Source: Candidatus Iainarchaeum sp. (GTDB taxonomy: Archaea; Iainarchaeota; Iainarchaeia; Iainarchaeales; JAAZKV01). From it: DNA of 64,000 bases. The notes beneath the pieces were generated by a model that was given only the letters and a program-made list of their open reading frames with translations, did not search any database and had not been told where the DNA came from. Within the stretch, counting starts at the first letter, position 1, and each line of letters opens with the position of its first letter. The stretch covers positions 186,359-250,358 of the forward strand of contig JAPLVR010000003.1 in assembly GCA_026397015.1 (NCBI GenBank). Reading direction: 5' to 3'. Below, in pieces: positions 14,011 through 60,935 of this stretch. The translations under genes and the position numbers were made by a program.

Positions 14011-14043
14011 TTTTTTCGCCAGCCTTTTTGTAAAAAAGGCTGG
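14011..14043 (+). terminator. palindromic hairpin element TTTTTTTCGCCAGCCTTTTT-GTA-AAAAAGGCTGG
   Basis: 11-bp perfect stem starting 37 nt after the stop of 11733..13982. It belongs to the window-wide repeat family. Confidence 0.5.
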
Positions 14044-14198
14044 TTTGAAACCTTAAGTTTTGGAAAACAAGAGGTTTGCTTTTTCCATAATGCATCCTTA
14101 TTAGCGGGGGCGCAACTAACATTAGTTGCCTTCTATTAAATGCACCAAAAAAGAGATGCACTGCAACTGAAGGCACAACTCCAACACGGTGAAAAAAA

Positions 14199-14555
14199 TT
14201 GAGTCTTATAAAGCTGACTTTCGGCGGAAGGAATCCAAGCGCGGCTGACGCAATAGGCAAAGGAAAATTGAAGGTTGTTAAAACCGACAAATTTTACGGA
14301 ACAGAAGCCGTTTGCGTAATAGGAACACTCGTTGAAGGGGCTCTTTCTGTAAACATGTGCATTCCGGAAAAGAATGCAAAAATACAGAGCCTGGAATCGA
14401 ACTATGGCGATGATTACTGCGTAAAAGAAGGTGCAAAGGTAACACTCATGGTTTTGGGGATAAATAAGAGCGACTTTAACACGGGGGATGACATACAGTT
14501 CCAAAAGCTTGCGGTGATTGCCGGCAAACCGAAGGGAAGATTGATAATCGCATAA
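14199..14555 (+). CDS. hypothetical protein (TTG start, dubious)
   Basis: ORF-track call only. No upstream ATG and no motif. A GC hairpin GCCTGCC...GGCAGGC follows at ~14570-14600. Confidence 0.3.
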   Translation: MSLIKLTFGGRNPSAADAIGKGKLKVVKTDKFYGTEAVCVIGTLVEGALSVNMCIPEKNAKIQSLESNYGDDYCVKEGAKVTLMVLGINKSDFNTGDDIQFQKLAVIAGKPKGRLIIA

Positions 14556-14636
14556 ATTTTACGGATGGTGAGCAGCCCGGCCTGCCCCCGGCGGCAGGCG
14601 GGTTTAAATCCTTAATTGGACTAATTTTATTTCAGT

Positions 14637-15197
14637 ATGGCAAATCTTTTCAATCCACAAAATATCCAAGATAAACTGAAAAATCCAATGAAAAAATTGT
14701 TCTCATCGCAGGCGTCGGTTGAAACAAAACAAATAATGCTTTATGCAACCGGTCTAATCATTATCCCGCTTTTATCCAACAATCAATTGATAACGGGCGC
14801 ATTTGTAAACACAATATTGATACTTGCCGCGCTGAACTATTCCCTCAAAAAAACTTTTTTCCTCTCATTCATCCCGAGCACGACAATTTTTTTAACAGGG
14901 TTTTTCTTCGGCGGCGTAACAGCCGCAATCGCGTTGATGCTCCCTTTCATTTGGGCGGGAAACTTTTTGTTGATGCTTGCAACAAAAAAACTTTTCATTG
15001 AAAAGAAAAAAAATTATTTCATTTCTGCTACCGGGGGGGCACTGGCAAAAACCGCTTTGCTTTTTTGTTCTGCAACAATGCTCGCTTCATTCTCGCTTAT
15101 CCCAATCGTATTCGTTTCGACGTTTGGAATAATGCAGCTGGCAACAGCCGAAAGCGGCGCAATGATTGCTTTTATTTTAAAAAAAGCAAAAAGATAA
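14637..15197 (+). CDS. polytopic membrane protein, function unknown
   Basis: About five hydrophobic helices, 186 aa. Confidence 0.5.
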   Translation: MANLFNPQNIQDKLKNPMKKLFSSQASVETKQIMLYATGLIIIPLLSNNQLITGAFVNTILILAALNYSLKKTFFLSFIPSTTIFLTGFFFGGVTAAIALMLPFIWAGNFLLMLATKKLFIEKKKNYFISATGGALAKTALLFCSATMLASFSLIPIVFVSTFGIMQLATAESGAMIAFILKKAKR

Positions 15198-15222
15198 AAA
15201 CAGGCATATTCACTTTCATAGT

Positions 15223-15960
15223 ATGTTAATTGAACTTTTCCTGTCTCTTCTGGCAATTTCCCTCGTCTCGCTGATAGGCTTATTTTCATTTGCGGTAAAC
15301 TCAAAAAAAATCGGGAAATTGCTCGGAGAAATGGTTGCGTTTGCGGTAGGCGCTCTTCTCGGGGACGTTTTCATCCATCTCCTTCCGGAACTTGGAAAAA
15401 ACGGGTTTTCACTTGAAATTTCAATAACGATTCTTGCTGGAATGGTTTCATTCTTCGTGCTGGAAAAATTCATCCACTGGCACCACTGCCACCACGTCGA
15501 GCATGGAAAAGCCTGCCAGAGATTCACATACATGAGCATTTATGGCGACGCGCTGCACAATTTCATTGACGGGATAATACTTGCAGGCGCTTTTATTTCG
15601 GGAAACGTAATCGGCTTTTCAACCGCAATCGCGGTTTTTCTGCATGAAGTGCCGCAGGAAATCGGGGATTTTGGAATTCTGCTGAAAGGCGGCTTCACAA
15701 AGAAAAGAGCATTGTTTTATAATTTCGTGACGGCGCTTACGACATTCGTGGGAGCGGGATTTGCTTTATATTTCAGCACGCTAATGGAAGGAATTGCCCC
15801 TTTTTTTATCGCTTTTGCCGCTGGAAGCTTTTTGTACATCGCCGGAACGGATTTGCTGCCGGAACTGCACAAAGAATTCTCACCAAAAAAAATATTTTCA
15901 CAGATATTTTTTATCATTCTTGGCATAGGAGTAATGGGCGCGCTCTTACTGATAGGGTAG
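15223..15960 (+). CDS. zupT: ZIP-family zinc transporter ZupT
   Basis: ZIP signature HEVPQEIGDFGILL, the His-rich loop HWHHCHHVEHG, and eight TM segments. Confidence 0.8.
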   Translation: MLIELFLSLLAISLVSLIGLFSFAVNSKKIGKLLGEMVAFAVGALLGDVFIHLLPELGKNGFSLEISITILAGMVSFFVLEKFIHWHHCHHVEHGKACQRFTYMSIYGDALHNFIDGIILAGAFISGNVIGFSTAIAVFLHEVPQEIGDFGILLKGGFTKKRALFYNFVTALTTFVGAGFALYFSTLMEGIAPFFIAFAAGSFLYIAGTDLLPELHKEFSPKKIFSQIFFIILGIGVMGALLLIG

Positions 15961-16021
15961 ATAACAAGTCTGCAAATCTTCGAAGCGGAAGTAATTTAAC
16001 CAAGAAAAGAGGAATTACTTA

Positions 16022-16723
16022 ATGAAAAAAATATTCAGAACACCTTTTTTCAATGGAAGGAAAAAAAGAATTGAAAGAGCAGTAGAAAGGGCAAGGGCAT
16101 TGCGGGCGAGAAAACGCGTTCCATGGAAAAGAGGAATATCCGAATTACACGAGATGAACGAATCGCACGCGAGAGAACTTATTGCAAGAAAAATAGTTCT
16201 TCCTGCGGCAAGAAAAGCGCTTGGAAGGCATCTAAAAGCGGTCCTGATTTTCGGGAGCGCACAGCAGGGAGTAAGGGAATCAGTGCTTGGCCACAGGAAA
16301 TATTTGAATGAACGCCCCGCACTTGCCATCCCGAAAAAAAGCGATCTTGATATATTACTGATAAGCACAAAAGCACCTGACAGAGAATCTTACCAGACAA
16401 TGGCAGGGCTTTCAAGCATGGTGCCAATTGACCTTGAAAATACTTTGGGCGGGCAAATGGGTGCCGGCGGTTTCATTAGAAGAAAAACAAAAAAAATCGA
16501 AAAAACTGTTTCAGACCTGAAAATACTTAATCTGGGATTTTATGTGCATTTCGAAATAGTGCACCCTGATGTTTTTGCGAACGAAATGCGCAACATTTTT
16601 TCTCCATTTCAAGTGATAAGCGGGAAGAAATATGTTCAGCAAATACTTGAAGAAAAATTTTTCGAAAGGCTGCCGAGAATGAAAAAAGAACTCAAAAAAG
16701 ATTATCCTTTGAAGTATTCATGA
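16022..16723 (+). CDS. hypothetical protein with minimal nucleotidyltransferase-like GS...DxD motif
   Basis: IFGSAQQG followed by SDLDILLI resembles the Pol-beta superfamily nucleotidyltransferase core, but the match is weak. Confidence 0.4.
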   Translation: MKKIFRTPFFNGRKKRIERAVERARALRARKRVPWKRGISELHEMNESHARELIARKIVLPAARKALGRHLKAVLIFGSAQQGVRESVLGHRKYLNERPALAIPKKSDLDILLISTKAPDRESYQTMAGLSSMVPIDLENTLGGQMGAGGFIRRKTKKIEKTVSDLKILNLGFYVHFEIVHPDVFANEMRNIFSPFQVISGKKYVQQILEEKFFERLPRMKKELKKDYPLKYS

Positions 16724-16734
16724 TTAAACTTTTG

Positions 16735-17328
16735 TTAAAGCGCGGGCGAAGTAACTTTCTCAAGCGCTTCCTTCAACATTGCTTTTGCGCCGCCGTAGTT
16801 GTGCCCGGGCCAAATTATTATCTCAGGATTTTTTTTTGAGAACGCTGAAAGCTTTTCCAGCGAAGCGCGCATTTCATTTTCATCGCCGCCGAAATCGGCT
16901 CTTCCCGTGCCGTCGGCAAACAGCACATCGCCGGTAAATAAATTATTTTTAATCAAAAAACAAACGCTGTCGGAAGTGTGGCCGGGAAGGAAAAGCGTTT
17001 CAATTCTGAAACCCGCGACTTCAATTTCCGGGCACTTTTTTAAATCTTCAAAACTTTTCAAAAGGATTCCTTTCTCAATAAAGCAATTCACGTTTCCGGC
17101 ATGGTCGAAGTGGGAATGGGTTACTAATTGAAAAATAACTTTTGCGTCATTTTTCCTTATTGCTTTTTCTATTTCTTCAATTGAGCCGGTCGCATCAATC
17201 AAAACCGCTCCGCCATTTTTTCCGATTACAAGATAAGAAAAATTGTTGTCGAAGCCGCGGACATTTACCTGAATTATTTTTACTTTTTCCGGTTTTGGAG
17301 ATTTTTTTAGGCTTTTGGAGGAAACCAT
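16735..17328 (-). CDS. MBL-fold metallo-hydrolase (glyoxalase II-like)
   Basis: HxHxDH motif THSHFDHAG. The start was moved to the internal Met (MVSSKSLKK...KIIQVNV). The tool start at 17406 adds 26 implausible residues and overlaps the next gene. Confidence 0.7.
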   Translation of the reverse strand: MVSSKSLKKSPKPEKVKIIQVNVRGFDNNFSYLVIGKNGGAVLIDATGSIEEIEKAIRKNDAKVIFQLVTHSHFDHAGNVNCFIEKGILLKSFEDLKKCPEIEVAGFRIETLFLPGHTSDSVCFLIKNNLFTGDVLFADGTGRADFGGDENEMRASLEKLSAFSKKNPEIIIWPGHNYGGAKAMLKEALEKVTSPAL

Positions 17329-17363
17329 AATGGTTTTTATACTGCGGAAACATCTATAATGGT

Positions 17364-17789
17364 ATGGCGGAAAGGAAACCCAGCATAGTAAGATTAGTGC
17401 TGACAATCATTGTTGCGGCAATAGTTTTCTTTGTCGTTTCGATGGCGTTCAGCTTCCTGACAAAAATGTTCTTTCCTTATGACATGGCAGCGATTGCAGG
17501 GTCCAGGTTGGTAACGGACCCGCTAATGATGGCATTCTTCCTACATCCACTAATATATATGGTCGGAGTAGTCATACTGTATCCTCTGCTCAATCTGAAG
17601 TGGAGCACCGTTGAGAAGGGAACCGCTTACGGTTTTATTTTGTGGCTGATGATTTCGCTTCCCGAAGCGTACGTAATATTTACAAGCATGAGTGATTACC
17701 CGACAGGATTTTACATAGACAAGCTTTTGTTCGGGCTGGTTGCATGGATTGCAACCGGAGTAACGATTGCATACCTGTTGAGAGAGTAA
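17364..17789 (+). CDS. small membrane protein (141 aa), hypothetical
   Basis: Four predicted TM helices. Confidence 0.5.
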   Translation: MAERKPSIVRLVLTIIVAAIVFFVVSMAFSFLTKMFFPYDMAAIAGSRLVTDPLMMAFFLHPLIYMVGVVILYPLLNLKWSTVEKGTAYGFILWLMISLPEAYVIFTSMSDYPTGFYIDKLLFGLVAWIATGVTIAYLLRE

Positions 17790-17939
17790 ACTGTTGAAAG
17801 AATATTTGTCCAACCGCTATTTGCTACGACGCGAGAACTCAAAAATACATTTAACTACTTAACTTTTCACAAAAATTTAAAGCAGCGAAAAGACCTTTCA
17901 TAAAAAAGGCTGTGCCGAACGAAGTGAGGCGTTTTTCGC

Positions 17940-17962
17940 CAGCCTTTTTCTCAAAAAGGCTG
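17940..17962 (+). terminator. palindromic hairpin element CAGCCTTTTT-CTC-AAAAAGGCTG abutting tRNA-Asp 5' end
   Basis: 10-bp stem. An extra free right-arm copy AAAAAGGCTG lies at 17904-17913. Confidence 0.45.
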
Positions 17963-18033
17963 CCCCGATAGTCTATTGGTTAGGATTCACCCCTGTCACG
18001 GGTGAGAGCCGGGTCCGAATCCCGGTCGGGGCG
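17962..18033 (+). tRNA. tRNA-Asp (anticodon GTC)
   Basis: Folded by hand: 7-bp acceptor stem GCCCCGA/TCGGGGC, D-arm GTCT/GGAT, anticodon stem CACCC/GGGTG with loop CTGTCAC, T-arm CCGGG/CCCGG with loop TCCGAAT, and discriminator G. No encoded CCA. TTTT follows. Confidence 0.85.
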
Positions 18034-18146
18034 TTTTGGGCGAAAGGCCTATCTATTAACAGTGTATATTTTAACAATAAAAAAAAGAAAAAGCAAAACC
18101 TTTAAATACAACCTCGATACACAAAATAATATTGGTTGCGATTTCG

Positions 18147-21100
18147 ATGCGAAGACAAGTTTTGTTCTTATTTATGATTCTTCTTTCGGCGACTGTTTTT
18201 GCGGACTACTGTGTTAACAGGACTGGACCCGGTTATCTTGTGGGTTGCGGTGTGCTAGGAGTACAAAGCGGGTTTTCAACCTGCATTTATAACACCGACG
18301 CCGCCATGACTAAAATTAAGACTGTATTGAATTATACTGGACCGAACTGCGGAGTAAGAGTTACTTGTTACAATATTGGCAGTGGCGCTAGTGCTGGTCT
18401 GCAAGTTTGTGCGGGATATGATACTGGTTGTTATGCGCCAGGCGCAGGGTCGTGCGTTTGCAGCCCGAATAGCCAATTTGCCCCTGAAACATGTTCAAAT
18501 GGTTTTACCTATAAAACTTGTAACGGTAATGGTGACGGTTATTCACAGGCGAACTGCCAGCGGATTGGCGGTAACTGCAGCGGTGGAGACATATTTTATA
18601 CATCCAGGCTTAACACATCCTGCCCCCCAATAAACGGGCAATGTGTTCAAGACGTTTATGGCGCCCTAAATGGCCTGGGATACTGGGAACAATCCTCAGG
18701 GGCAAGGGCTTACTGCGATACTGTGAATTATCATGGCCTTCAGGTGGCACAGGCATGCGTTAAAACAGATGGTTCATGTATCCCAAAGGTCTGTACAGCG
18801 AATGCGTATGAGACGAGGGTGTGCACCAACAACAAGGGATTCCAATGGAGACAATGCAACGGATCTGGAACAGGATACAACGCCGACTGGTCAGCCTGCA
18901 TAACCATCCCGGGAGGAAACTGCACCACAACAACCGGCGACCAATTCTACACACTAAGAGCAAACACCACCTGCACCCAATCAGGACTAGCAGACGGATC
19001 ATCATGCAGCCAAAACTACACTAACCAATTAAACTCACTAGGATACAGCGGACCATACACAGGAACAAGAGTGTATTGTGAAAGCGGGTCATATGCAGGT
19101 TTTACAGCGGGAGAGGTGTGCGTAAAAACAGATGCAGCCTGCAACCCACCAATCTGCACAGCAAACGCATACGAAGCAAAAGTATGCGCCAACAACAAAG
19201 GATTCCAATACAGAAAATGCAACGCAAACGGAACAGGATACGAACCAGACTGGCAACCATGCACAGCACTGCCTGGAGGGGATTGTAAAACAATAACCGG
19301 GGATTTATTTTATACATCAAGACTGGAAGGCAAAAACTGCTCCCAATACGGGTTCGCAGGACAGACTGGATACTCGGCATGCGTACAAAGCATTAACAGA
19401 AGTGTTTTGGACGCAGTAGGATATACGGGACCATACATCGGAGCAAGAGCATACTGCGACGATGAAACATACCAAGGCGCAACTGCAGCAGAAGCATGCG
19501 TAAAAACAGATTCTTCTTGCGGAGCACCGTGCACAGTGGGGCAAATAGAAGCACAAACCTGTGACAATGACAATGGATACAAGTACAGAACATGCAACTC
19601 AACAGGAACGGCATGGAACGACTGGACCACATGCGCACCGCTACCAGGAACAAACTGCGGAGCAGGAACAACCAAAATATTCTACAAAGCATTCCTCAAC
19701 AAAACATGTGCGGAAGTCGCCCAGGGAAGAACAAATGTCTGTATACAAGACGTATTCCAAATAGCGTGGAATAATGGGTACAGGGGCCTGGCAACGGGGG
19801 CAAAGGTATATTGTGATGATTACAGGACATCAAGCTTATACGGGGCAGGATTCTGCGTAAAGGTGGCTACGGAATGCGACCAGTCAGTCTGCACACCCGG
19901 AAAATACGAGGCAAGGGAATGCATAAACAAGAGGGCGGATACCAAAATGCCAAGCGGATATCAATACAGGCAATGCAACACAACAGGGCAAGCATGGGGC
20001 GACTGGTCAACATGCGCACCAATACCGGGAATAAACTGCGGAACCGGAATCACAAAAATATTCTACTACCCGAAACTCAACGTTACGTGTGCAGGGGTCG
20101 GGATACCGACAAGCGGACTATGCATACAAACAGTACTCCAACAAGCAAAAGCACTCGGATACACCGGACCAGAAACAGGCGCAAGAGCATATTGTGATAA
20201 TTACAGAACCGAAGATATATTCGGTGCGGGAGCATGCGTAAGAACGGACACAGGCTGCAATACCGGCTGCATATGCACCGACCAATACGACCCTGTTTGC
20301 GGAACAGACGGAAAAACTTATCCTAATGAATGCGCCGCGAGATGCGCGAAAATAGCGGTCGCGTATGAAGGCGAATGCAAAGAAAACTGCGCAAAGGAAG
20401 GGGAAGGAATCTGCAACACATGCACACCGGGAAGCGGACCAACGGAATGCTGCACCGGGCTGACAAAAATAACGCCCGCAAGTAAGCTAAATGATGATTG
20501 CACTTTGAAAAATATAGTCGGCGGACAATCATCAGTCTGCACCCATTGTGGAGACGACATTTGCGGAACCGGAGAAAACAAATGCAACTGTCCACAGGAT
20601 TGCAATCCCATTAAATGCGAAACAAGTAAAGATTGTTTAAGGGGTTGCATAGGGCCGAAAGCGACTTACGGTTCCTGCACGAACGGGCAATGTGTATATA
20701 CTAGATGTGAAACGGATGGCAGTGGCATTGACAGATGTGCTGCAGACACCGCACCGCCAACGTGCGACAAAAGATGCGACGCGGACTGCGAAACCAACGC
20801 GGACTGCATGGTTACTTGCGCCCAAAATTTATGCGCGATTGGCGAAACCAATTGTGCAGAATGCCCTGAATACACCTGCAACAGAGAATCCTGCGAGTGT
20901 GAGCCGGTAGTAGTACCTGTACCGCGGTTTAATTTGACAGTGCATACTGGCTGGAATATTTTCTCGATACCCGGAGCATTGAGCCTACTGAGCAATAATT
21001 GCGATTCAAGCAGATTTAGAATTTACGAATACACCCCCTCTTCAATACCTTGGTTTGTTCCTGTAAGCAACGTTGAAATAGGAAAGGCATATTTACTATA

Positions 21101-21422
21101 TTACCCTCTGGCAGATTGTTCGGTGAGAGGAACCATAACAGAGGCAATCAGTTCAAGCGAATTGCCGGCTGTCAGAACAGGCTGGAATTTCATACCTGTT
21201 CTTGTTGATATGATTGGAATGAAGGTGAGCGATCTTGTACCTGATTGTGGAGCCGTTAGGGCGTACTTCTACGATGCCGAAGCAGTTGGATTCGTTGACA
21301 TAACTAATACTATTTTAACTTCAAGTGATTTAGGCCAAGGATTCGGATTGTTTGCAATGAATGGCTGCACGGTTACAACACCATCGGAACCTGGCTTCCC
21401 TGCATTACCGGAGGCTGACTAA
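18147..21422 (+). CDS. giant Cys-rich secreted protein with five tandem ~120-aa repeats, a Kazal-like domain and a C-terminal beta-rich domain
   Basis: Signal peptide MRRQVLFLFMILLSATVFA. The repeat unit, CTANAYExxVCxNNKGFQxRxCN..GTGY..DW..C...PGGxC.T.TGD.FYT.R....C ... GYTGPYxGARAYCD....G....CVKTD..C, occurs five times (nt ~18480-20250, also visible as a DNA tandem). The Kazal signature is CICTDQYDPVCGTDGKTYPNECAARCA, and the module CGDDICGTGENKCNCPQDCN is also present. The tool start is TTG 18132; the first ATG is at 18147. Confidence 0.75.
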   Translation: MRRQVLFLFMILLSATVFADYCVNRTGPGYLVGCGVLGVQSGFSTCIYNTDAAMTKIKTVLNYTGPNCGVRVTCYNIGSGASAGLQVCAGYDTGCYAPGAGSCVCSPNSQFAPETCSNGFTYKTCNGNGDGYSQANCQRIGGNCSGGDIFYTSRLNTSCPPINGQCVQDVYGALNGLGYWEQSSGARAYCDTVNYHGLQVAQACVKTDGSCIPKVCTANAYETRVCTNNKGFQWRQCNGSGTGYNADWSACITIPGGNCTTTTGDQFYTLRANTTCTQSGLADGSSCSQNYTNQLNSLGYSGPYTGTRVYCESGSYAGFTAGEVCVKTDAACNPPICTANAYEAKVCANNKGFQYRKCNANGTGYEPDWQPCTALPGGDCKTITGDLFYTSRLEGKNCSQYGFAGQTGYSACVQSINRSVLDAVGYTGPYIGARAYCDDETYQGATAAEACVKTDSSCGAPCTVGQIEAQTCDNDNGYKYRTCNSTGTAWNDWTTCAPLPGTNCGAGTTKIFYKAFLNKTCAEVAQGRTNVCIQDVFQIAWNNGYRGLATGAKVYCDDYRTSSLYGAGFCVKVATECDQSVCTPGKYEARECINKRADTKMPSGYQYRQCNTTGQAWGDWSTCAPIPGINCGTGITKIFYYPKLNVTCAGVGIPTSGLCIQTVLQQAKALGYTGPETGARAYCDNYRTEDIFGAGACVRTDTGCNTGCICTDQYDPVCGTDGKTYPNECAARCAKIAVAYEGECKENCAKEGEGICNTCTPGSGPTECCTGLTKITPASKLNDDCTLKNIVGGQSSVCTHCGDDICGTGENKCNCPQDCNPIKCETSKDCLRGCIGPKATYGSCTNGQCVYTRCETDGSGIDRCAADTAPPTCDKRCDADCETNADCMVTCAQNLCAIGETNCAECPEYTCNRESCECEPVVVPVPRFNLTVHTGWNIFSIPGALSLLSNNCDSSRFRIYEYTPSSIPWFVPVSNVEIGKAYLLYYPLADCSVRGTITEAISSSELPAVRTGWNFIPVLVDMIGMKVSDLVPDCGAVRAYFYDAEAVGFVDITNTILTSSDLGQGFGLFAMNGCTVTTPSEPGFPALPEAD

Positions 21423-21425
21423 AGC

Positions 21426-21647
21426 ATGGAAAAAAAATTTGTTTTAGTTATACTTATTTTGGCAATAGTTGTTTCAATGCTGCTGCTTGGCTGCACATAT
21501 GAGGCGTCAGTTTGCGGCGACAGAATGTGCAACGGGCGGGAAACAGCCAGCACATGCCCTAATGATTGCGGAAGCAACGCTGCATCGCCACCTGCACTGC
21601 CTGCCAACGGAGACAGCGGAGTAGAGCCAACAATGCCTTGGCAATAA
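21426..21647 (+). CDS. small Cys-motif lipoprotein (73 aa)
   Basis: The signal sequence ends in the lipobox LLLGC and is followed by the module CGDRMCNGRETASTCPNDCGSN. The start lies 4 nt after the giant gene's stop. Confidence 0.5.
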   Translation: MEKKFVLVILILAIVVSMLLLGCTYEASVCGDRMCNGRETASTCPNDCGSNAASPPALPANGDSGVEPTMPWQ

Positions 21648-21742
21648 AATATTCTAATATAAAATTAGAGTTCATCGTGGGCAAATCGAAAAATTAATTA
21701 TTAAAAAAAGCAATTTATACATAACCCTGATTATTTTAAAAA

Positions 21743-23257
21743 TCATTTTTTTGCCAGCGCCTTGTTGATTCCTTTTATCAGCGCCTGCGCACTAGCCATA
21801 ACGATGTCCTCGTTAATGGCTTCCGCCTCATAAATTTTTCCGCTGCCGTTTGAAACTTTTACAACAACATCTGCCAACGCATCCGTGCCGCCTGTAATCG
21901 CCTTCAAATAGTAGTCCTTCAGGAAAATCTGCTGGGGGATGACTGATTTTATCGCATTGCTTACCGCATCAACCGGACCCAGCCCGTAACCAACCGCCTC
22001 AACACTCTTGCCGTCAATCACGAGTTTTATTTTCGCCTTCGGCCTTGTTTTGTTTCCGGTTTCAATAAACAGTTCGTCAAGAACTACACGCTGCTCTTCT
22101 TTCTTCAGTTCCTTCGTAACATCACCCGCAATCGCCACGATATCCTCTTCAAGGACAATTTTCTGCTTGTCGGCAAGGTCCTTTATTTTTTTGGTCACTT
22201 GGGCAAGCTGCCCCTCGCTTAAAATGAAGCCCATTTCCTCAAGGACTTTTTTCGCCGCGTGCTTTCCGCTGTGCTTACCCAAAACAAGTTTTGTTTTTTT
22301 GCCGATAATTTTTGGATTAATTATTTCGTAAGTTTCTGAGTTGGCAAGGATGCCGTGCTGATGGATGCCCGATTCGTGGGAGAAGGCGTTTTCGCCGACT
22401 ATGGCCTTGTTGCGCTGAACGGAAATTCCAGAAAGGCTGCTTACCATCTGCGAAGTTGCATAAATTTCTTTCAAATTGATATTTGTTTCTGCTTTGAAAA
22501 AATTTTTGCGCGCATAAAGGTTCATTGCGACCTCTTCAAGCGCGGCATTGCCTGCGCGCTCCCCCAAACCGTTAATTGTGCACTCTACCTGCGAAGCGCC
22601 GTTCGCTACGCCGGCAAGGCTGTTTGCAACCGCAAGACCCAAATCGTTGTGGCAATGGGTGCTTATTGCAATTCCTTCAATATTCGGCACTTCTTCCCTA
22701 ATTTTTTTCACCAAGACGCCGTACTCTGCAGGCTGGGAATAGCCGACCGTATCTGCAACATTTATGGTGGAGGCGCCGGCTTCAATCGTTTTCTCGATAA
22801 CCCCGAGCAAAAAAGGCACATCGGAACGGGTTGCGTCCATCGGAGAAAATTCTATGTCGTTACAGAGGTCGGAAGCGAATTTTACCGCCTCAACGGACAT
22901 TTTTAGGGCATCCGCACGCGAAATTTTGAACTGCTCTTTCAAGTGGATATCCGAAGTGGACATAAATGTGTGAATGCGGGGCTTTTTCGCGCTTTGAAGC
23001 GCTTTCCACGCAACTTTTATGTCATTTTCGCGGGCGCGGGCAAGGGCGGCAATCTTGGACTTCTTAATTATCGAAGAAATTTCTGAAACAGCTTTGAAGT
23101 CTTCGTCGCTCGAAACAGGGAAGCCTGCTTCAATAATATCCACTCCGAGTTTTTCCAGTTGCTTCGCTATGATAATTTTTTCGCGATGATTTATGGTTGC
23201 GCCGGGGCTCTGCTCGCCATCCCTTAATGTCGTGTCAAAAATTTTTATTTTCCTCAC
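21743..23257 (-). CDS. leuA: 2-isopropylmalate synthase / (R)-citramalate synthase (LeuA/CimA family)
   Basis: N-terminal DRE-TIM metallolyase signature [15 protein letters not shown], HxH ([15 protein letters not shown]), and the C-terminal LeuA-dimer regulatory domain. 504 aa. Confidence 0.85.
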
Positions 23258-24302: not shown

Positions 24303-24507
24303 CAGCAAAAGTTGGCGGCGCAATTTTGAGGGATTTTTCCGTTCTCCCGCCTGCAGAAAAATATAAATAAAAGGGCTTCTCTGGCCCCTTATTGTATAAA
24401 CGCGAAAGTAAGGGTGATAAAATTGTACAAGAACAGAAAAAGAAAAAACAGAAAAAGGCTTATGAAAAGCAGAAGAAAGTAAGGCGCAAAAAAGACGACA
24501 AAAAATA

Positions 24508-52999: not shown

Positions 53000-54502
<1,503 letters not shown>

Positions 54503-54509
54503 TTTTCAC

Positions 54510-54532
54510 CAGCCTTTTTCGCAAAAAGGCTG
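54510..54532 (+). terminator. palindromic hairpin element CAGCCTTTTT-CGC-AAAAAGGCTG
   Basis: 10-bp stem, 8 nt after the rpoA'' stop. Confidence 0.5.
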
Positions 54533-54681
54533 ATTTAAAAACGTTAATGAAAGGGATTGTATAGTAATTGTTTTGCCTTGGGAAGCGGAAAGCGCGGAGT
54601 AAGGCGGTTAAAGAGTTAACTGCTTTTAATCCAGTGCTCCTCGACCCAGGTTATTGGTGGGCGGACAGAAAGTGATTTATC

Positions 54682-54978
54682 GTGGAAATAAACAAGGAAA
54701 TCAGGCGTGCGGTTGACACCGGAAAGGTTTCATTCGGGCAGAGACAGTGCCTAAAAAACCTTGCGAGCGGAAAGGGCGAACTGGTAATAGTCAGCGAAAA
54801 TCTCCCGCGCAACGAAAAAGAAAAAGTAGAGCATATGGCAAAAATTGAAAATAAAAAATTCTACGTATTCAGCGGAAACGGGCTGACGCTCGGAAGCATC
54901 TGCGGAAAACCATTCGTAGTTTCGACAATGCTCGTGCTCGACGCTGGAAAAAGCAAGGTGCTTGAAGCCGTGCAGTAG
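54682..54978 (+). CDS. rpl30e: ribosomal protein L30e
   Basis: 98 aa, matching the L30e/L7Ae fold pattern. Its position between rpoA'' and nusA is canonical. Confidence 0.8.
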   Translation: MEINKEIRRAVDTGKVSFGQRQCLKNLASGKGELVIVSENLPRNEKEKVEHMAKIENKKFYVFSGNGLTLGSICGKPFVVSTMLVLDAGKSKVLEAVQ

Positions 54979-55002
54979 AAACAAAACAACATAAAAAAAG
55001 CA

Positions 55003-55407
55003 GTGGGAACAATGAAGCTTTCAATGGATGAAATTCGTTTGATGAACGCGCTTGAAAAAATTTCGGGGGCTAACGCAAAGGACTGCCTCGTTTCAGACGG
55101 CATGGTTTCGTTTCTTGTAAACGAAAGGGATGTCGGGAAGGCGATTGGAAAGAAAGCCTCCAATGCCAGGGCACTCGAAGAAAGCGTCAAAAAAAGAATT
55201 GAAATAATCGGCTTTCAGGAAAATCCTGAAGAGATGGTGAAAAAGGCGCTCGAAATAGAAACGATAGGGGCAAGAAAGGACTCTGAGAAAATTGTAATAA
55301 GATTGGATTCGATGAACAAAAGAAAATTGCTCAAAAAAAGCGCAAAGCTGAAGAGGGTAAGGGAATTCATAAAAAGAAATTTTAACTTGAATTTAACGGT
55401 AAATTAA
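55003..55407 (+). CDS. nusA: transcription termination/antitermination factor NusA (archaeal, KH domains only)
   Basis: Two KH-like segments (…VGKAIGKKASNARALE…), 134 aa, in the canonical position. Confidence 0.8.
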   Translation: MGTMKLSMDEIRLMNALEKISGANAKDCLVSDGMVSFLVNERDVGKAIGKKASNARALEESVKKRIEIIGFQENPEEMVKKALEIETIGARKDSEKIVIRLDSMNKRKLLKKSAKLKRVREFIKRNFNLNLTVN

Positions 55408-55468
55408 GATAGGTTAAAATAGTATTGTTACAAGAGAAATTATGAGGATAAGAGAGTAAAAATTACAA

Positions 55469-55909
55469 GTGATTTTAATGGGAAGAGGGGAGTTCGCAGC
55501 ACTGAGCCTCGAGAAAAAGAGGAAAAAGTGGAAGAGAAAGGACGGAAGGCATGCCAGAAAAATGAAGGCAAAGAACCGCGAATTTGACGACCTGCTGGAA
55601 GGAGCGCCGCAGGGAAGAGGAATCGTATTAGAAAAAAGAGGGGTAACGGCAAAGCAGCCCCACTCCGGAATAAGAAAATGCGTAAGGGTTCAGCTCATTA
55701 AAAACGGAAAACAGTTGACCGCATTGGCGCCAAGAGACGGGGCAATAAAATTTATTGACGAACATGACGAAGTAACTGTAAGCGGACTGGGGGGAGCGCA
55801 AGGCGGGCCTTCAGGAGACCTTTGGGGGGTAAAGTACAAAGTAACGCACGTGAACGGAATAAGCCTCGAAATGCTTAGGACAGGAAGAAAGGAGAAAGTA
55901 AAAAGGTAA
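55469..55909 (+). CDS. rps12: ribosomal protein uS12
   Basis: Conserved …[39 protein letters not shown]…. Confidence 0.85.
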
Positions 55910-56197
55910 AAGCAAAAAAACTAAAAAAAATCAAAATGAAATTAAGATAAAAGTAAATTAAGAAGAGAAAAAGTAAAATAGAACAAGGTAAAAAAATTAA
56001 AATAAAAGTAAATTAAAAAAAGAAAAATTAAAATAGAATAAGGCAAAATAAAGTAAAAAAATTGAAACTTAAAAAAGGAAAAATAAAATAAGTCATAAAA
56101 AAACAAATCTGGAAAAAATGAAAAATAATAATTAAAAAAATAAAGCAAAAAAAAATGGAAAAAGCAAATCTGAAAAAAACATAATGAAAAATAATAC
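55910..56197 (+). repeat. A-rich low-complexity spacer (~290 bp, ~70% A, C-poor) with a ~56-nt internal tandem duplication
   Basis: Seen directly. The units ATAAAAGTAAATTAAGAAGAGAAAAAGTAAAATAGAACAAGGTAAAAAAATT (near 55947) and ATAAAAGTAAATTAAAAAAAGAAAAATTAAAATAGAATAAGGCAAAATAAAG (near 56003) are related. S12 and S7 are normally adjacent. Confidence 0.7.
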
Positions 56198-56212
56198 TTG
56201 GAATGTGGTAAT

Positions 56213-57061
56213 ATGGGCGCGGAAAAAGAAGAAAAAAAAGAAAAACAGGCAAAGGAAAAAGAACCTTCGGCGAAACCGGTGAAAGAAATGAAACCAGAAG
56301 TTAAGGCTGAGGTTCAGAAAACTGCGCCGCAGGAACACAAACTTAATGCAAAGACACCGCAGGAAAACAAACCACGTGCCGAGCATTTGGCGGAAAAACA
56401 GTTCGCCGTTAATCCGGCGCCGAAAATTTTGGTGCCACAGAGAAAAAATCTTTTCCCTGAAAACAAGGTTTTCAACAGATGGTCATTCAATGACGTCAGA
56501 ATAACTGATTTGGGCTTGGCAAGATACATATGCCTCGATTCAATGATTCTGCCGCATTCTTTCGGAAGAAAGACCGGCGGAAAATTCGGGAAATCAAAAA
56601 TTAATCTCGTTGAGAGGCTGGTAAACAAAGTTATGCGCTCGGGCCAGGGAAAAAGAAAACTCAGCGGAAAATTTATCAGAGGAAGGGGAAGCTGCGGAAA
56701 AAAAATGCAGGCAATGAGAATAGTCGAGGGAGCTTTTGAAATAGTTGAAAAGAAAACAGGAAAAAATCCTGTTCAGGTGCTTGTTACCGCTATTGAAAAC
56801 ACTGCTCCGAGAGAAGACGTTACAAGAATAAAGAGAGGAGGAGTTCCGTACACCGTTGCAGTAGATGTTTCGCCGCAGATAAGGCTCGATGAAGCACTAA
56901 AAAACATCGCACTGGCCGGATTTGGAAATTCTTTCAACAAAAAAGTGAGCGCTGCGGAAGCCCTTGCGGAAGAAATGGTTGCGGCTTCGACCAACGACAC
57001 GAAAAGCAGCGCGGCAAAGAGAAGGGATGAAATCGAGAGAATCGCGAAGGCCTCAAGATAA
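56213..57061 (+). CDS. rps7: ribosomal protein uS7 with ~80-aa Lys/Glu-rich N-terminal extension
   Basis: uS7 core from ~aa 85 (…RWSFNDVRITDLGLARYI… to the C-terminus). The first ATG is at 56213; the tool start is TTG 56198. Confidence 0.8.
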   Translation: MGAEKEEKKEKQAKEKEPSAKPVKEMKPEVKAEVQKTAPQEHKLNAKTPQENKPRAEHLAEKQFAVNPAPKILVPQRKNLFPENKVFNRWSFNDVRITDLGLARYICLDSMILPHSFGRKTGGKFGKSKINLVERLVNKVMRSGQGKRKLSGKFIRGRGSCGKKMQAMRIVEGAFEIVEKKTGKNPVQVLVTAIENTAPREDVTRIKRGGVPYTVAVDVSPQIRLDEALKNIALAGFGNSFNKKVSAAEALAEEMVAASTNDTKSSAAKRRDEIERIAKASR

Positions 57062-57116
57062 AAAAAAGTTCCCGATTATTTTATTTTTTGGTGGTACGGT
57101 GGGAAGACAGGAAGAC

Positions 57117-59291
57117 ATGGCTTTGCTTGTTGAGAAGCTGATGAGCTCGAGGGAAAATATCAGGAACATCGGCACTGTCGCACACATCGACCACGGAAAA
57201 ACAACGCTAAGTGACACGCTAATTGCTGCTGCAGGGCTAATTAACCCTGAACTTTCGGGAAAAGTCCAGCTGATGGATTACGAGGACCAGGAGCAGGACA
57301 GGGGAATAACTATAAATGCGGCGAACATTTCAATGGCTTTTGATTATGATGGAAAGAAAAATCTGGTTAATTTGATTGACACACCAGGGCACGTGGATTT
57401 TACAGGAGAAGTTATAAGGGCGATGAGGGCGGTTGACGGTGTAATACTTGTGGTGGATGCAGTCGAGGGAGTGATGCCGCAGACGGAAACTGTGATAAGG
57501 CAGGCGCTGAGGGAATATGTGAAGCCGGTGCTGTTCATCAACAAAGTGGACAGGATAATAAAAGAATTGAACGCGACGCAGGAACAGATGCAGGAAAAAT
57601 TTGTAAAAGTAATTGCACAGGTAAACATGCTGATTGAGAGGAACGCACCTGCGCAATTTAAAGAAAAATGGAAAGTTAGGATAGAGGACGGCTCTGTTTC
57701 CTTCGGTTCGGCTAAGAGAAAGTGGGGGGTTTCGGTTCCTTACATAAAAAAGACCGGAATAACGTTGAAGGATACTTATAATTATTTGAGGGAGGACAAG
57801 CAGGATGAGCTTGCAAAAAAGAGCCCTGTGAGCGAAGTGGTTCTGCAAATGGTTGTGGACCACCTTCCGAGCCCAATAGAAGCGCAGAAATACAGGATAC
57901 AAAAAATATGGGGAGGCGATAGGGAAACAGAAGTTGGTAAGGCAATGGAATCATGCGACCCGAACGGACCGCTTTCAATGGTTATTACTGATGTGAGCGT
58001 TGACCCTCACGCGGGGGATGTTGCAACCGGAAGGATTTATTCAGGAACAATAAAAAACGGGGGCTTGGTTGTGCTGACGGGCTCGAAGAAGGAAATAAAG
58101 ATACAAAAAGTCGGAATCTTCATGAGCAACGATTTTTTGACAATCTCGAAGGCGCAAGCGGGAAACATTGCGGCGCTCGTCGGAATAAAGGATATTTATG
58201 CTGGCGAAACGGTTTCAACCCATGAAATGAAGCCCTTTGAAAGTTTCATGAGCAGGGTTGAACCGGTAATGACGATCGCAATTGAAGCAAAAAATCCGAA
58301 GGACCTTCCGAAACTTATCGAAGTGCTGAGAAAACTGGCGAAAGAGGATCCCAACCTAAGAGCGACAATAAACCAGGAAACGGGCGAGCATCTTCTTTCA
58401 GGAATGGGAGAGCTTCACCTGGAAGTAAATGTTTACAGGATTACGACTACGAACAAAGTTCCTGTTCAGACGTCTGCGCCGATTGTGGTTTATCACGAAG
58501 CGATTAATGGAACGAGCCAGACTCTTGAAACAAAGAGCCCGAACAAGCACAACAAATTCAAGATGAGGGCGCTTCCGCTGGACAAAAAAATTTTTGACAA
58601 TTTAATCGAAGCAAAAATCGAGGGAAAATTAAAATTGAAGCACGCGGAAACGATTGCAAAACTGCAGGCGGCCGGCTTTGATACGGACACTTCGAAAAAG
58701 GTTTGGGCGATTAGTAACGGCTCTGTTTTGATTGATAGGTCAAGAGGGGTACAGGCGCTGCACGAAATAAGGGAACTTGTAATTGAAGGGTTCATGGACG
58801 CGATGGCGGAAGGGCCGCTGGCGAAAGAAAAGTGCCAGGGGGCAGTAATAGAACTCGAAGATGCAATACTTCACGAGGACTCAATTCACAGGGGACCGGC
58901 ACAAGTATTGCCTGCAATTACACGCGGAATATTTGCAACAATGCTGCAAGCTGGCGCGGTTCTCTTTGAACCGAAACAAATACTTTCAATTATGGTCCCT
59001 GAAAATTACATGGGCGCGGCTTCGCGAGAACTGGGGTCGAGAAGGGTGCAAATAACAGAAATGAGGACGGAAGGGGATTCGAGCGTTATTATTGGAAAGG
59101 CACCTGTGAAGGAATTGATTGGGTTCAGCAGCACAATGAGAAGCGCGACACAAGGAAGGGCCGTTTGGACGGCGGAGTATTACGGCTATGAAATGCTGCC
59201 GAAGGAATTGCAAGCAAGCACAATAAAAGAAATAAGAAAGAGAAAGGGAATGGACGAGGAAGTAAAGAGCTGGCAGTTCTTCGTCGACTAA
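57117..59291 (+). CDS. fusA: elongation factor 2 (aEF-2)
   Basis: G-domain motifs AHIDHGKTT, DTPGH and NKVD, with the EF-2 C-terminal domains. The start was moved to MALLVEKLMSS, because the tool ORF at 56964 overlaps rps7 out of context. Confidence 0.9.
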   Translation: MALLVEKLMSSRENIRNIGTVAHIDHGKTTLSDTLIAAAGLINPELSGKVQLMDYEDQEQDRGITINAANISMAFDYDGKKNLVNLIDTPGHVDFTGEVIRAMRAVDGVILVVDAVEGVMPQTETVIRQALREYVKPVLFINKVDRIIKELNATQEQMQEKFVKVIAQVNMLIERNAPAQFKEKWKVRIEDGSVSFGSAKRKWGVSVPYIKKTGITLKDTYNYLREDKQDELAKKSPVSEVVLQMVVDHLPSPIEAQKYRIQKIWGGDRETEVGKAMESCDPNGPLSMVITDVSVDPHAGDVATGRIYSGTIKNGGLVVLTGSKKEIKIQKVGIFMSNDFLTISKAQAGNIAALVGIKDIYAGETVSTHEMKPFESFMSRVEPVMTIAIEAKNPKDLPKLIEVLRKLAKEDPNLRATINQETGEHLLSGMGELHLEVNVYRITTTNKVPVQTSAPIVVYHEAINGTSQTLETKSPNKHNKFKMRALPLDKKIFDNLIEAKIEGKLKLKHAETIAKLQAAGFDTDTSKKVWAISNGSVLIDRSRGVQALHEIRELVIEGFMDAMAEGPLAKEKCQGAVIELEDAILHEDSIHRGPAQVLPAITRGIFATMLQAGAVLFEPKQILSIMVPENYMGAASRELGSRRVQITEMRTEGDSSVIIGKAPVKELIGFSSTMRSATQGRAVWTAEYYGYEMLPKELQASTIKEIRKRKGMDEEVKSWQFFVD

Positions 59292-59403
59292 TTAAATCGA
59301 GTAGTAAAACATGGTTGAAATTGCGAAGCGTGACAAAACAGTTGTTTTGCCACGGTCTTTTTTTCGAAAAAAGGGCACTCCTGCGAAGCAGACAGTTTTT
59401 CGC

Positions 59404-59426
59404 CAGCCTTTTTCGTAAAAAGGCTG
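59404..59426 (+). terminator. palindromic hairpin element CAGCCTTTTT-CGT-AAAAAGGCTG
   Basis: Lies downstream of EF-2, preceded by the two smaller hairpins CAAAACA-GT-TGTTTTG and CTTTTTTT-CG-AAAAAAG. Confidence 0.5.
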
Positions 59427-59444
59427 ATGTGAAGCATTTTTTCG

Positions 59445-59467
59445 CCGGCCTTTTGCTAAAAGGCCGG
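59445..59467 (+). terminator. variant hairpin element CCGGCCTTTT-GCT-AAAAGGCCGG
   Basis: Same flanking TTTTTTCGCC leader as the canonical element, with GGCC replacing AGCC in the stem. Confidence 0.45.
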
Positions 59468-59579
59468 GGGCAAGTATTTAAAAGGTTTCTTTAAAGGAAT
59501 AGTAATATAGTTTTGCTGCGCAACTGGTGGGCGCGGCCGCAACGATAAAATTTGGAATTTTTATTCGGAGGAATGTAAG

Positions 59580-60848
59580 ATGGCTGAAAAAAGTCTGATG
59601 AACATAGTTTTTATTGGTCACGTGGACCATGGTAAATCCACTTTAATCGGAAGATTGCTTTATGACGGTGGAGCTCTTTCAGAACAGGAATACAGAAAAT
59701 TGGAAGCGGAAGCGAAGGAAAGGGGAAAGGGAACATTCGCCTTTGCATACGCAATGGACAAACTGAAAGAAGAAAGAGAAAGGGGAGTAACAATTGACGT
59801 TTCATACAGGAAGTTCGAGGCGAAGAAAAACACTTTCACAATAATTGACGCGCCCGGACACAGGGACTTCGTAAAGAACATGATAACGGGAACTTCACAG
59901 GCGGATGCTGCAGTATTGGTAGTCGCCGCAAAAGAAGGCGTTCAGCCGCAGACAAAGGAGCACGCGTTCCTCGCCCAGGTAATGGGGATAAAACAATTAG
60001 TCGTTGTAATAAACAAAATGGACGAAGTGAATTATGAAGAGGCAAAATTCAACACTGTAAGCGCCGAAGTGGTAAAATTGCTGACAGGCGTTGGATACAA
60101 AGCTGATAACCTGAAAGTTGTTCCGGTTTCGGCTTGGAAAGGAGACAATGTAGTAAAAGCTACTAATAATCTAAAATGGTTCAAGGGAAAAACACTTTTG
60201 GATACGCTTGATGATTTGAAGGCGCCTCCATCACCGACAGACAAACCGTTGAGGCTGCCGATACAGGACGTTTACAATATAAAAGGAATTGGAGCGATTC
60301 CTGTTGGAAGAATTGAAACCGGAATAATGAAGCCCGGCGACCAAATAATAGTAATGCCTTCGAAGAAAACCGGGGAAGTGAAAACAATCGAAGAGCATCA
60401 CGAACAGCTGAGCCAGGGAGGTCCGGGAAACAACGTCGGTTTCAGCGTAAGAGGATTGAGCAAGGATGACTTGAACAGGGGAGATGTTGTTGGGCCGGTA
60501 AGCAAACCGCCGACGGTTGCAAAATCGTTCATCGGGCAGATAGTTGTGTTGAATCACCCTACTGCAATACCTGTGAATTACACGCCAGTGTTCCATGTCC
60601 ATACTGCACAGATGTCAATGAGACTTGCTGAACTGCAGAAGAAACTGGACCCTAAAACGGGCGCTGTTGTGGAACTGAATCCAAAGTTCCTGAAAACCGG
60701 CGATGCGGCAATCGTAAAGATTGTTCCGTCAAAGCCGCTCTGTATTGAAAAATACTCTGAGTTCCCTCAATTGGGAAGGTTCGCAATCAGGGATATGGGT
60801 CAAACTGTTGCGGCGGGAATCGTTCTTGACATTGAAAAGGCGGAATAA
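59580..60848 (+). CDS. tuf: elongation factor 1-alpha (aEF-1alpha)
   Basis: [18 protein letters not shown]. 422 aa. Confidence 0.9.
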
Positions 60849-60912
60849 TCCCGTAGGGATTTTCGCAGGCCTTTGAAAAAGCTGGCAAAAGTTTTTCGCG
60901 AAAGTTTTTCGC

Positions 60913-60935
60913 CAGCCTTTTTCGCAAAAAGGCTG
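60913..60935 (+). terminator. palindromic hairpin element CAGCCTTTTT-CGC-AAAAAGGCTG
   Basis: Lies downstream of tuf. A short hairpin AATCCC-GTA-GGGATT overlaps the stop, and a degenerate copy sits at ~60862-60888. Confidence 0.5.

Follow-up and report, generated by a model that had tools for sequence, protein, structure and literature searches.

Small palindromic repeats, among them repetitive extragenic palindromes (REPs) and MITEs (miniature inverted-repeat transposable elements), have been well studied in bacteria but hardly in DPANN archaea, in which genomes are reduced and taken to be streamlined. In REP/RAYT and IS200/IS605 systems, single-strand DNA is recognised through a hairpin combined with a guide sequence. 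Here we describe a 31-nt hairpin element in a 64,000-nucleotide stretch of Candidatus Iainarchaeum sp. (GCA_026397015.1, contig JAPLVR010000003.1, positions 186,359–250,358), hereafter the window, whose first letter is position 1. The element joins an invariant one-sided leader of 9 nt (T5CGCC) to a perfect stem of 10 bp (AGCCT5/A5GGCT) whose 3-nt loop is free, arranged as TTTTTCGCC-AGCCTTTTT-N3-AAAAAGGCT-G; five perfect copies and one variant occur in the window, all on the + strand. We conclude with moderate confidence that it is a non-autonomous mobile DNA palindrome of DPANN archaea, which is copied and inserted. A set of ordinary, independently evolved terminators is very unlikely.

In its behaviour the element resembles REP or MITE repeats, but it belongs to neither class, as it lacks defining features of both. 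With REP/REPIN–RAYT systems it shares a short (20–40 nt) extragenic palindrome with a conserved one-sided flank, many copies per genome that lie after genes and sometimes inside operons, tandem clusters, the absence of coding capacity and a possible hairpin at mRNA 3′ ends. Its design, a one-sided flank with a perfect hairpin and a free loop, matches hairpin-plus-guide recognition. However, the flank is TTTTTCGCC where REPs have GTAG, the stem is perfect where theirs is imperfect, and the hosts are DPANN archaea; the REP combination of an imperfect palindrome with a 5′ GTAG-type tetranucleotide is absent, and the element is analogous, not homologous, to REPs. The inverted pairs of REPINs were not seen either: copies stand singly or in direct arrays, and the six in the window share one orientation. 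Long variable target duplications and a tRNA-intron habitat belong to the element and not to REPs, and whereas REPs are species-specific, the element is identical across very distant lineages. The sequence-only reading that first drew attention to these hairpins had proposed a search for a TnpREP-like protein. No RAYT/Y1_Tnp match to Pfam was found in the window's ~40 open reading frames (ORFs) or among the recurrent families of 148 ORFs neighbouring copies elsewhere, and these sets held no other transposase near the element.

Sulfolobus SM1–4, the Neisseria Correia elements and the MITE-like small RNA elements of Pyrobaculum (PMC6009581) are the nearest comparators among MITEs, in which DPANN genomes are reported to be rich (PMC11602168). 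Like these, the element is a small non-autonomous insertion that ends in inverted repeats, is polymorphic for its presence between relatives and falls into subfamilies. It differs in being only 31 nt long, two 10-bp arms around a 3-nt centre, and in its target duplications, which accompany ~20% of copies and span 12–97 nt instead of having a fixed short length. No parent insertion sequence is known, and a search of viral contigs, phages and plasmids for the element returned no matches.

To our knowledge, mobile hairpin elements of the kinds found as GC clusters, in Allomyces or in Rickettsia have not been described in archaea. The Allomyces double-hairpin elements are tied to duplicated or replaced gene termini (atp6). 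Together with the GC clusters of yeast mitochondria (PMC4478555) and the Rickettsia palindromic elements, they resemble the present element in being short hairpin-forming repeats of reduced genomes that spread into introns, RNA genes and the regions between genes; they are unrelated to it in sequence and host, and presumably in mechanism. A further likeness, to casposons and tRNA-targeting integrative elements, lies in the preference for tRNA ends and gene 3′ ends, in the 14–16 nt of the cleanest duplications and in the displaced gene end that is kept beside the insert. Casposons and integrative elements of this kind make 14–15 bp duplications and target tRNA 3′ ends or the 3′ end of the EF-2 gene. 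In contrast, the insert here is 31–150 nt, without integrase, Cas1 or terminal inverted repeats beyond the hairpin, and duplications of 38–97 nt fit neither group.

Exact matches to the core AGCCTTTTTNNNAAAAAGGCT lie at 14021, 17941, 54511, 59405 and 60914 of the window, against a mean chance expectation of 0.04; none of 100 dinucleotide-preserving shuffles reached five. The leader TTTTTCGCC precedes four of these matches exactly, and the copy at 54502 has ATTTTCACC instead. A covariance model of the family, run unfiltered, gave six matches at 37–52 bits, all on the + strand. The next-best match, at 12 bits, was a decayed copy at about 60858–60885, and a gapless scan of the window with up to eight mismatches found nothing beyond the six copies on the leader-first strand. 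The six near-identical hairpins and their conserved leader, as listed in the sequence-only reading, are therefore real: five exact cores plus a GGCC variant, in which both arms are altered by compensatory changes that keep the palindrome (Table 1). Its label of a PKD lipoprotein for the gene before copy 1 found no support in Pfam.

Copies are spaced at ~1 per 10 kb (six in 64 kb), with none in coding sequence, and their flanking genes include those for rpoA'', L30e, NusA, EF-2, EF-1α and S10. All six are oriented like the upstream gene; five trail the stop codons of protein genes by −1 to 146 nt, and the sixth, copy 2, lies 142 nt past a 141-amino-acid ORF and abuts tRNA-Asp, as the earlier reading had noticed. 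Every copy holds two T4–T7 tracts.

Table 1. Hairpin element copies and accompanying features in the window. Bit scores refer to the covariance model of the family.
Feature	Position	Strand	Details
Copy 1	14010–14042	+	T7CGCC leader, AGCCTTTTT-GTA-AAAAAGGCT-G; 52.2 bits; begins 27 nt past the stop (13982) of a gene for a 749-amino-acid protein with no Pfam domain
Decayed older unit	17885–17912	+	GCGAAAAG-ACCTTT-CAT-AAAAAAGGCTG
Variable GC hairpin	17912–17931	+	GTGCC...GGCG; directly before the copy 2 leader; conserved with changes in relative L013
Copy 2	17932–17962	+	loop CTC; last G (17962) is nucleotide 1 of tRNA-Asp; 50.3 bits
tRNA-Asp(GTC)	17962–18033	+	Rfam match; abutted by copy 2
Copy 3	54502–54532	+	leader ATTTTCACC, loop CGC; 41.7 bits; begins on the last base of the rpoA'' stop codon, with TATA-like ATTTAAAAAC of the L30e gene directly after
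Second C-GAA-G mini-hairpin	59321–59332		
C-GAA-G triloop mini-hairpin	59381–59391	+	CTGCGAAGCAG; 4 nt ahead of the copy 4 leader
Copy 4	59396–59426	+	loop CGT; 104 nt after the EF-2 stop; 49.5 bits
Copy 5, GGCC/T4 variant	59437–59467	+	T6CGCC-GGCCTTTT-GCT-AAAAGGCC-G; 37.1 bits
Decayed copy	60860–60885	+	TTTTCGC-AGGCCTTT-GA-AAAAGCTGG; behind intact copy 6; 11.9 bits
Solo leader-like unit	60892–60904	+	TTTTTCGCGAAAG; 13-nt tandem with the copy 6 leader
Copy 6	60905–60935	+	loop CGC; between tuf and rpsJ

Most copies are preceded by a GC hairpin 0–8 nt before the T-run of the leader, with GNRA or C-GAA-G loops on the leader-first strand. In arrays (L021, L025, L003 and window 60860–60935, where L-numbers denote the genomic loci we collected), the intact unit always stands at the junction and the decayed units behind it, on the leader side; the arrays of L021, L025 and L003 are in direct orientation. 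The degenerate copy after tuf that the earlier reading had reported belongs to the array in the window. The free right arm AAAAAGGCTG at 17904–17913, which it had also recognised, is part of the decayed unit before copy 2. It can pair with the left arm of copy 2, and the computed alternative fold (−19.3 kcal/mol) is as stable as the copy 2 hairpin itself.

The family extends well beyond this genome. Using the palindrome CAGCCTTTTTNNNAAAAAGGCTG alone, with the leader excluded from the query, one genome per GTDB species was scanned. This yielded 40 loci, 28 in metagenome-assembled genomes (MAGs) of DPANN archaea (about 11 genomes) and 12 in bacteria. Although it was outside the query, the asymmetric leader flanks the palindrome on one side in the archaeal loci: 26 of the 28 match it at 9/9 positions and the remaining two at 8/9 and 7/9. 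A metagenome scan found the full 31-mer in 19 contigs. Submitters had labelled the DPANN carriers as Micrarchaeota, Iainarchaeum, Woesearchaeota, Altiarchaeota or simply 'archaeon'; the GC content of carrier loci spans 0.32–0.62 across MAGs and metagenome contigs and 0.37–0.62 in the loci of the species scan, and some carriers are very distant from each other, their ProRS being ~35% identical (L006/L014 versus L007/L038). One MAG, JBAZFU01 ('archaeon SO_2017_LW3_27'), holds at least 13 copies and another six, while most other genomes have one. Rfam covariance models (gathering score or E≤1) gave only tRNA and rRNA matches and none for the element, and our literature search found no paper that contains the exact sequence or describes such an element; at 31 nt, it is probably too short for repeat and MITE finders, which is an assumption of ours. 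A subfamily, a 65-nt unit made of a GTGGGGT..ACCCCAC hairpin and an element with loop GTT, occurs in L011, L022, L034, L050 and L052. It adjoins non-homologous genes, the flanks of L011, L022 and L034 being unrelated, which is subfamily structure of the kind expected from copying. All collected loci except L061–L064 were chosen for holding an intact element; in this set the stem is nearly invariant, with only two stem mismatches, which are G-T solely on the leader-first strand, and covariation analysis was uninformative because the copies are nearly invariant by ascertainment.

Eight of the 12 bacterial loci are CAGCC-T5..A5-GGCTG hairpins without the leader. The complete element was seen in gut MAGs of Oscillospiraceae/Ruminococcaceae, in L009 (5300–5330), L018 (4668–4698), L010 (~2683) and L032 (~4863). 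The leader is 9/9 in L009 and L018, which also have an upstream GCGAAGC mini-hairpin, and L010 and L032 carry a variant with a 1-nt insertion. The flanking genes of L009 and L018 are bacterial (GH94, peptidase M23, ABC-F), showing that these loci are not misbinned archaeal DNA.

Presence and absence at orthologous sites could be compared with L061, a contig of JBAZFU01 that was fetched through its protein, and hence without bias towards the element. It carries the orthologous rpo–EF2–tuf–S10 region, with an EF-1α 93% identical to that of the window. Over this 9-kb stretch the window has four copies and L061 has one, between tuf and S10. In both, rpoA'' ends in ...MRPKNK*; the element follows in the window and 25 unrelated AT-rich bases in L061, after which both resume with the same ATTTAAAAAC promoter region. 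After EF-2, where the window has copies 4 and 5, L061 has another gene and no element. Where L061 is without the element, T-rich stretches stand instead. At the shared tuf site, leader and arms are identical at 28/28 positions, the loop is CGC in the window and GTG in L061, and the upstream flank is 50% identical; the window has the decayed extra copy in addition. The copy before the tRNA is likewise shared by this close relative (L013). In three more distant Iainarchaeota (EF-1α 79–81% identical), 21 kb of each contained no canonical copy; one has a variant with stem GAACC and leader T7CGCG. Conversely, L004 has an element between its orthologues of rpoB'' and rpoB' (73% and 58% identical), where the spacer of the window is 33 nt and has no element. 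Presence and absence at orthologous sites (window versus L061; L004) and non-homologous contexts (L011, L022, L034) are what a mobile repeat would leave. The earlier reading had offered confinement to the window and perfect synteny as grounds for abandoning it, and had proposed a search for copies at non-orthologous positions; the family reaches beyond the window, its positions are not perfectly syntenic, and such copies exist, in the rpoB''–rpoB' spacer of L004 and between unrelated flanks.

Read from the leader, the bases right behind GGCTG often repeat the end of the gene that is intact on the leader side. When direct repeats across the element were compared with those at 600 random positions of the same loci, 12 of 56 non-redundant copies exceeded the 95th percentile, and in 12/12 of these the downstream repeat begins 0–3 nt from the hairpin foot. 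Flanking duplications of the adjoining gene or tRNA end, 12–97 nt long, thus accompany about one fifth of copies. A ~65-nt insert made up of a variable hairpin and the element is flanked in L022 and L046 by the final ~93 nt, stop codon included, of a gene of the cimA/leuA type; in L044, L042 and L060, the same gene is duplicated over ~45 nt with a different junction. In L052 the repeated stretch is ~95 nt from the 3′ end of a purE-like gene, recognised by eye in its translated C-terminus, and L011 repeats 38 nt of another gene's 3′ end. In L034 and L008, the first 17–21 codons of gatB/E-like genes (identified by eye from the GLEIHxQL N-terminal motif) are duplicated and the truncated copy abuts the hairpin; the insertion is at nearly the same codon of the gatB/E-like gene in two distant lineages. 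Ends of tRNAs are duplicated as well, over 10–16 nt at the 5′ end in L014 and L039 and over 15 nt at the 3′ end in L007. L001 and L058 are minimal cases, in which a repeat of 14–15 nt flanks only the 31–34 nt unit; the cleanest duplications (L001, L058, L039, L007) are 14–16 nt. An assembly artefact is an unlikely source, as the same junction is present in the independent assemblies L022 and L046 and duplicates differ by up to ~20%. An mRNA intron with bulge-helix-bulge ends was also considered for the coding-like duplicates and rejected, since inspection of L046 and L022 revealed no splice-site complementarity.

Mobility is supported by gain and loss between close relatives, by unrelated contexts occupied by subfamilies, by a precise junction at the outer hairpin foot and by decayed copies that stand behind intact ones. 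The view that these are not independently evolved hairpins, and that they behave like REP or MITE repeats, had been put forward from the letters of the window alone; it is borne out by one dispersed, conserved family with gain and loss in close relatives, non-orthologous positions and flanking target duplications.

A second habitat of the element is the boundary of tRNA genes, which were called by ARAGORN with introns allowed and by Infernal. Fourteen copies lie within 0–4 nt of tRNA ends and three more inside tRNA introns, in both orientations. Six copies share the strand of the tRNA and have their hairpin foot 0–2 nt from its mature 5′ end; eight are on the opposite strand and follow the tRNA 3′ end by 0–4 nt. 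The tRNA is always at the hairpin end of the element and never at the leader end. The intron copies are leader-first in the tRNA sense in Ser-GGA of L001 (intron of 161 nt) and hairpin-first in Gly-CCC of L028/L053 (72 nt) and Glu-CUC of L054 (108 nt). In L028 the canonical hairpin starts at the first intron base; in L001 and L054 an element-like hairpin begins no more than 1–2 nt from the 5′ splice site, with the canonical copy deeper in the intron. Other long introns (L014, L028) contain hairpin-plus-GCGAAAAA units with a GAACC stem. Four of the six tRNA-leader copies were examined for promoters, and in these the sole TATA-like boxes are 85–115 nt upstream. The only TATA-like box of copy 2 (17871–17883) lies upstream, which would place copy 2 in the 5′ leader of tRNA-Asp. 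Across the family, the element was found only where the transcript is discarded: in 3′ untranslated regions (UTRs), tRNA leaders and trailers, tRNA introns from position 37/38 and one operon spacer.

Two promoter readings were rejected. A promoter for a leaderless tRNA, as in Nanoarchaeum, does not agree with positions −31 to −23, which are TTTTTCGCC and contain no TATA box, nor with copies that trail tRNA 3′ ends in the opposite orientation; a BRE/TATA reading of GCGAAAAA fails as nothing TATA-like comes after it. The window also encodes a tRNA-Tyr(GTA) (5491–5664, + strand) with a 101-nt intron at 37/38, called by ARAGORN with introns allowed and missed by default ARAGORN and by Rfam at the gathering score. 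Its intron holds a T/A-run hairpin, CTTTTCTTTTCGAAAGAAAAG, and the nearest TATA-like box is ~140 nt upstream. In L055, a 23S rRNA gene (1–1115, − strand) has two copies (1157–1186 and 1253–1282) 40–170 nt upstream of its 5′ end, hairpin-first in the rRNA sense.

If the element is mobile, an enzyme encoded elsewhere would recognise leader and stem together as a module. Candidates, by analogy, would be a single-strand DNA enzyme that recognises a hairpin plus guide, or a structure-specific integrase. Insertion at staggered breaks would give long duplications, and sites near tRNA and gene ends would be hit repeatedly. At its six positions in the window, the element may be carried passively in 3′ UTRs and one tRNA leader.

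Several points weigh against mobility. Pfam identified only housekeeping families and PIN, Fic and DNA-methylase domains among the ~40 window ORFs; they include no transposase, integrase or HUH gene, so the mover is hypothetical, and the 148 ORFs neighbouring copies elsewhere contain no recurrent mobile-element family. None of the six window copies (0/6) has a flanking duplication, and we know of no transposase that target duplications of 12–97 nt would fit. Estimates of copy number and conservation from loci selected for the element are biased, and purifying selection on a host function could also account for a 31-mer that is perfectly identical in very distant lineages and at the shared tuf site. 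The duplicated gene ends, moreover, differ almost only synonymously (8/8 differences in L011, about 14/15 in L052), and when L046 is polarised by L022, five of the six changes specific to the displaced copy are synonymous. This pattern is not predicted by duplication in situ followed by decay; it needs additional recombination with element-free relatives, or a function for both duplicates. The duplicated ends of L034 differ by an in-frame 2-codon indel, and in both L022 and L046 the stop codon is TGA in copy 1, the intact one, and TAA in copy 2, the displaced one. We prefer a course in which each duplicate, being contiguous with one flank, would at times be overwritten by homologous recombination with alleles of element-free relatives; gene conversion, or a function for both duplicates, may be the alternative.

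A bolder version of mobility takes the element as the cis-site of an undescribed DPANN insertion system that acts at RNA-gene boundaries, namely mature tRNA 5′/3′ ends and intron position 37/38. Target duplication would create or enlarge tRNA introns and duplicate gene termini, an active route of tRNA-intron gain that possibly crosses lineages, including a few Oscillospiraceae. We regard this as speculative and doubtful. Active insertion, if true, would be a concrete source of archaeal tRNA-intron gain and of mosaic gene ends, and would imply an enzyme that recognises the hairpin and the 9-nt flank. The element marks places where gene and tRNA ends are duplicated and stands at the start of unusually long tRNA introns. 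What makes it interesting is this habitat, the length of the gene-end duplications and that it is identical across distant lineages of DPANN archaea and a few MAGs of Oscillospiraceae (L009, L018, L010, L032). For annotation, hairpins of the element should not be taken as terminators, and intron-containing tRNAs missed by default scans are to be expected.

The explanation that survives best beside mobility is a sequence-specific termination or 3′-end signal read by a conserved factor or by RNA polymerase. The GNRA/GAA hairpin would be followed by T5 and by a palindrome that gives T5 on both strands, kept by purifying selection and spread by ordinary recombination. Like archaeal oligo-T terminators, the element puts T5 on the sense strand after stop codons, and its palindrome places a T-tract on both strands. 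The six window copies are co-oriented with the upstream gene, five of them after protein-gene stops, and the GC hairpin before the leader T-run resembles an intrinsic terminator. Across the family, 33 of 48 copies are found on the purine-rich (sense) strand; the bias of orientation relative to strand skews is only moderate (31–33/48). The T-rich stretches at element-free sites of the relative, and the 28/28 identity of leader and arms at the tuf site beside a 50% identical upstream flank, also agree with such a signal. However, archaeal terminators are not conserved in sequence outside the T-run, as the element is, and most gene ends of the window are without it. The element stands at no fewer than 12 sites that RNA polymerase has to cross: three introns of tRNAs, in both directions (sense in L001, antisense in L028 and L054); six tRNA 5′ leaders, of which the four examined have the distant TATA-like boxes described above; the rpoB''–rpoB' spacer; and upstream of two intact gatB/E-like genes, where the promoter precedes the truncated copy and the element stands between truncated and intact copies. 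Sense-strand runs of T≥5 are, in addition, common in the coding sequence of the window, with 96 in 51.5 kb against 24 expected from independent bases (~4x), which indicates that T5 alone is no efficient stop in this organism. Read-through contexts and the lack of T5 depletion in genes make a role as efficient terminator unlikely, judging from sequence, and the terminator half of the earlier reading is not supported. The RNA hairpin with its two T5 tracts could at most give leaky termination or 3′-end protection. Overall, we hold a dedicated termination signal to be rather unlikely. A related idea, a multi-terminator of the Methanosarcina type, was rejected, as the archaeal matches of the scan are only in DPANN MAGs and the EF-1α of the window is 100% identical to a protein of a Candidatus Diapherotrites MAG, its nearest relatives being Diapherotrites/Iainarchaeum MAGs.

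The element could also work at the level of RNA, as a protein-binding or processing hairpin in precursor RNAs, or through sense–antisense pairing of copies in introns with those in 3′ UTRs. The element is always in transcribed non-coding segments and its hairpin is stable (−13.6 kcal/mol in total for the copy 3 segment; z-scores of −2 to −4 with flanks). Hairpins that accompany it have GNRA or C-GAA-G loops on the leader-first strand, and the two stem mismatches are G-T on this strand only; since both orientations are transcribed in different RNAs, 28-nt duplexes are possible. Such a module does not account for DNA duplications at the hairpin foot or for gain and loss, it has no Rfam match, and its orientation relative to the host RNA is variable; the stem hardly varies in the ascertained set, which leaves almost no covariation to test. 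We therefore rate an RNA-level role as improbable.

Alternatively, the motif could be a signal for DNA transfer, uptake or recombination, comparable to the DNA uptake sequence (DUS) of Neisseria, the uptake signal sequence (USS) of Haemophilus or an oriT-like nick site. Biased uptake would keep and spread the motif, and segments from other lineages would be joined at the element. This explanation fits a motif that is identical across distant lineages sharing habitats and a junction that is always one precise hairpin end. The duplicates, too, differ like orthologues of different lineages, by synonymous changes, an in-frame indel and the stop codons shared by L022 and L046. Known uptake sequences are also found as inverted repeats after genes. 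They occur at ~1 per kb, including inside genes, whereas the element is present at ~1 per 10 kb in the window, as single copies in many carriers and never inside coding sequence. No copies were found in the viral, phage and plasmid collections. An uptake signal is thus quite improbable.

Chance, or independent evolution of look-alike oligo-T hairpin terminators, can draw on the leaderless CAGCC-T5..A5-GGCTG hairpins of unrelated bacteria (8/12 bacterial loci), but we count it as refuted by the five cores observed against 0.04 expected, by a leader outside the query that is nevertheless 9/9 in 26/28 archaeal loci, by subfamilies, duplications, gain and loss, and by model scores of 37–52 bits where the next is 12.

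Other features of the window lie near the copies or apart from them. Just upstream of the S10 gene, at 60937–60962, is a purine/pyrimidine hairpin, GGGGGAGAGAG-TTTTTT-CTTTCTTCC, which is kept in four relatives (L061–L064) with compensatory changes, for example GGGAATCGGAG-TTTTTT-CCGATTTCC; it is probably an S10 leader structure. A conserved block, GCGGAAAGCGCGGAGTAAGGCGG, at ~54580–54620 in the 5′ region of the L7Ae/L30e-family gene, is also present in L061, L063 and L064 and may represent a kink-turn-like leader for autoregulation. A ~280-nt stretch of A-rich, low-complexity repeat (55914–56196) separates the S12 gene from the S7 ORF and may be a lysine-rich N-terminal extension of S7 or an expansion of the spacer; at this place L061 has 38 nt only, and its S7 is longer (293 amino acids). 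A 29-nt tandem repeat, AATAGGTTAGAAAAAACCCGATAAATTAA, of 2.6–2.9 copies with 92–97% matches occupies 4345–4476, right after the stop of a DUF2666 gene. ORFs with PIN, Fic and DNA-methylase domains, resembling toxin–antitoxin or restriction–modification genes, cluster at the left of the window (6376–6819, 8451–8888 and 10545–11663).

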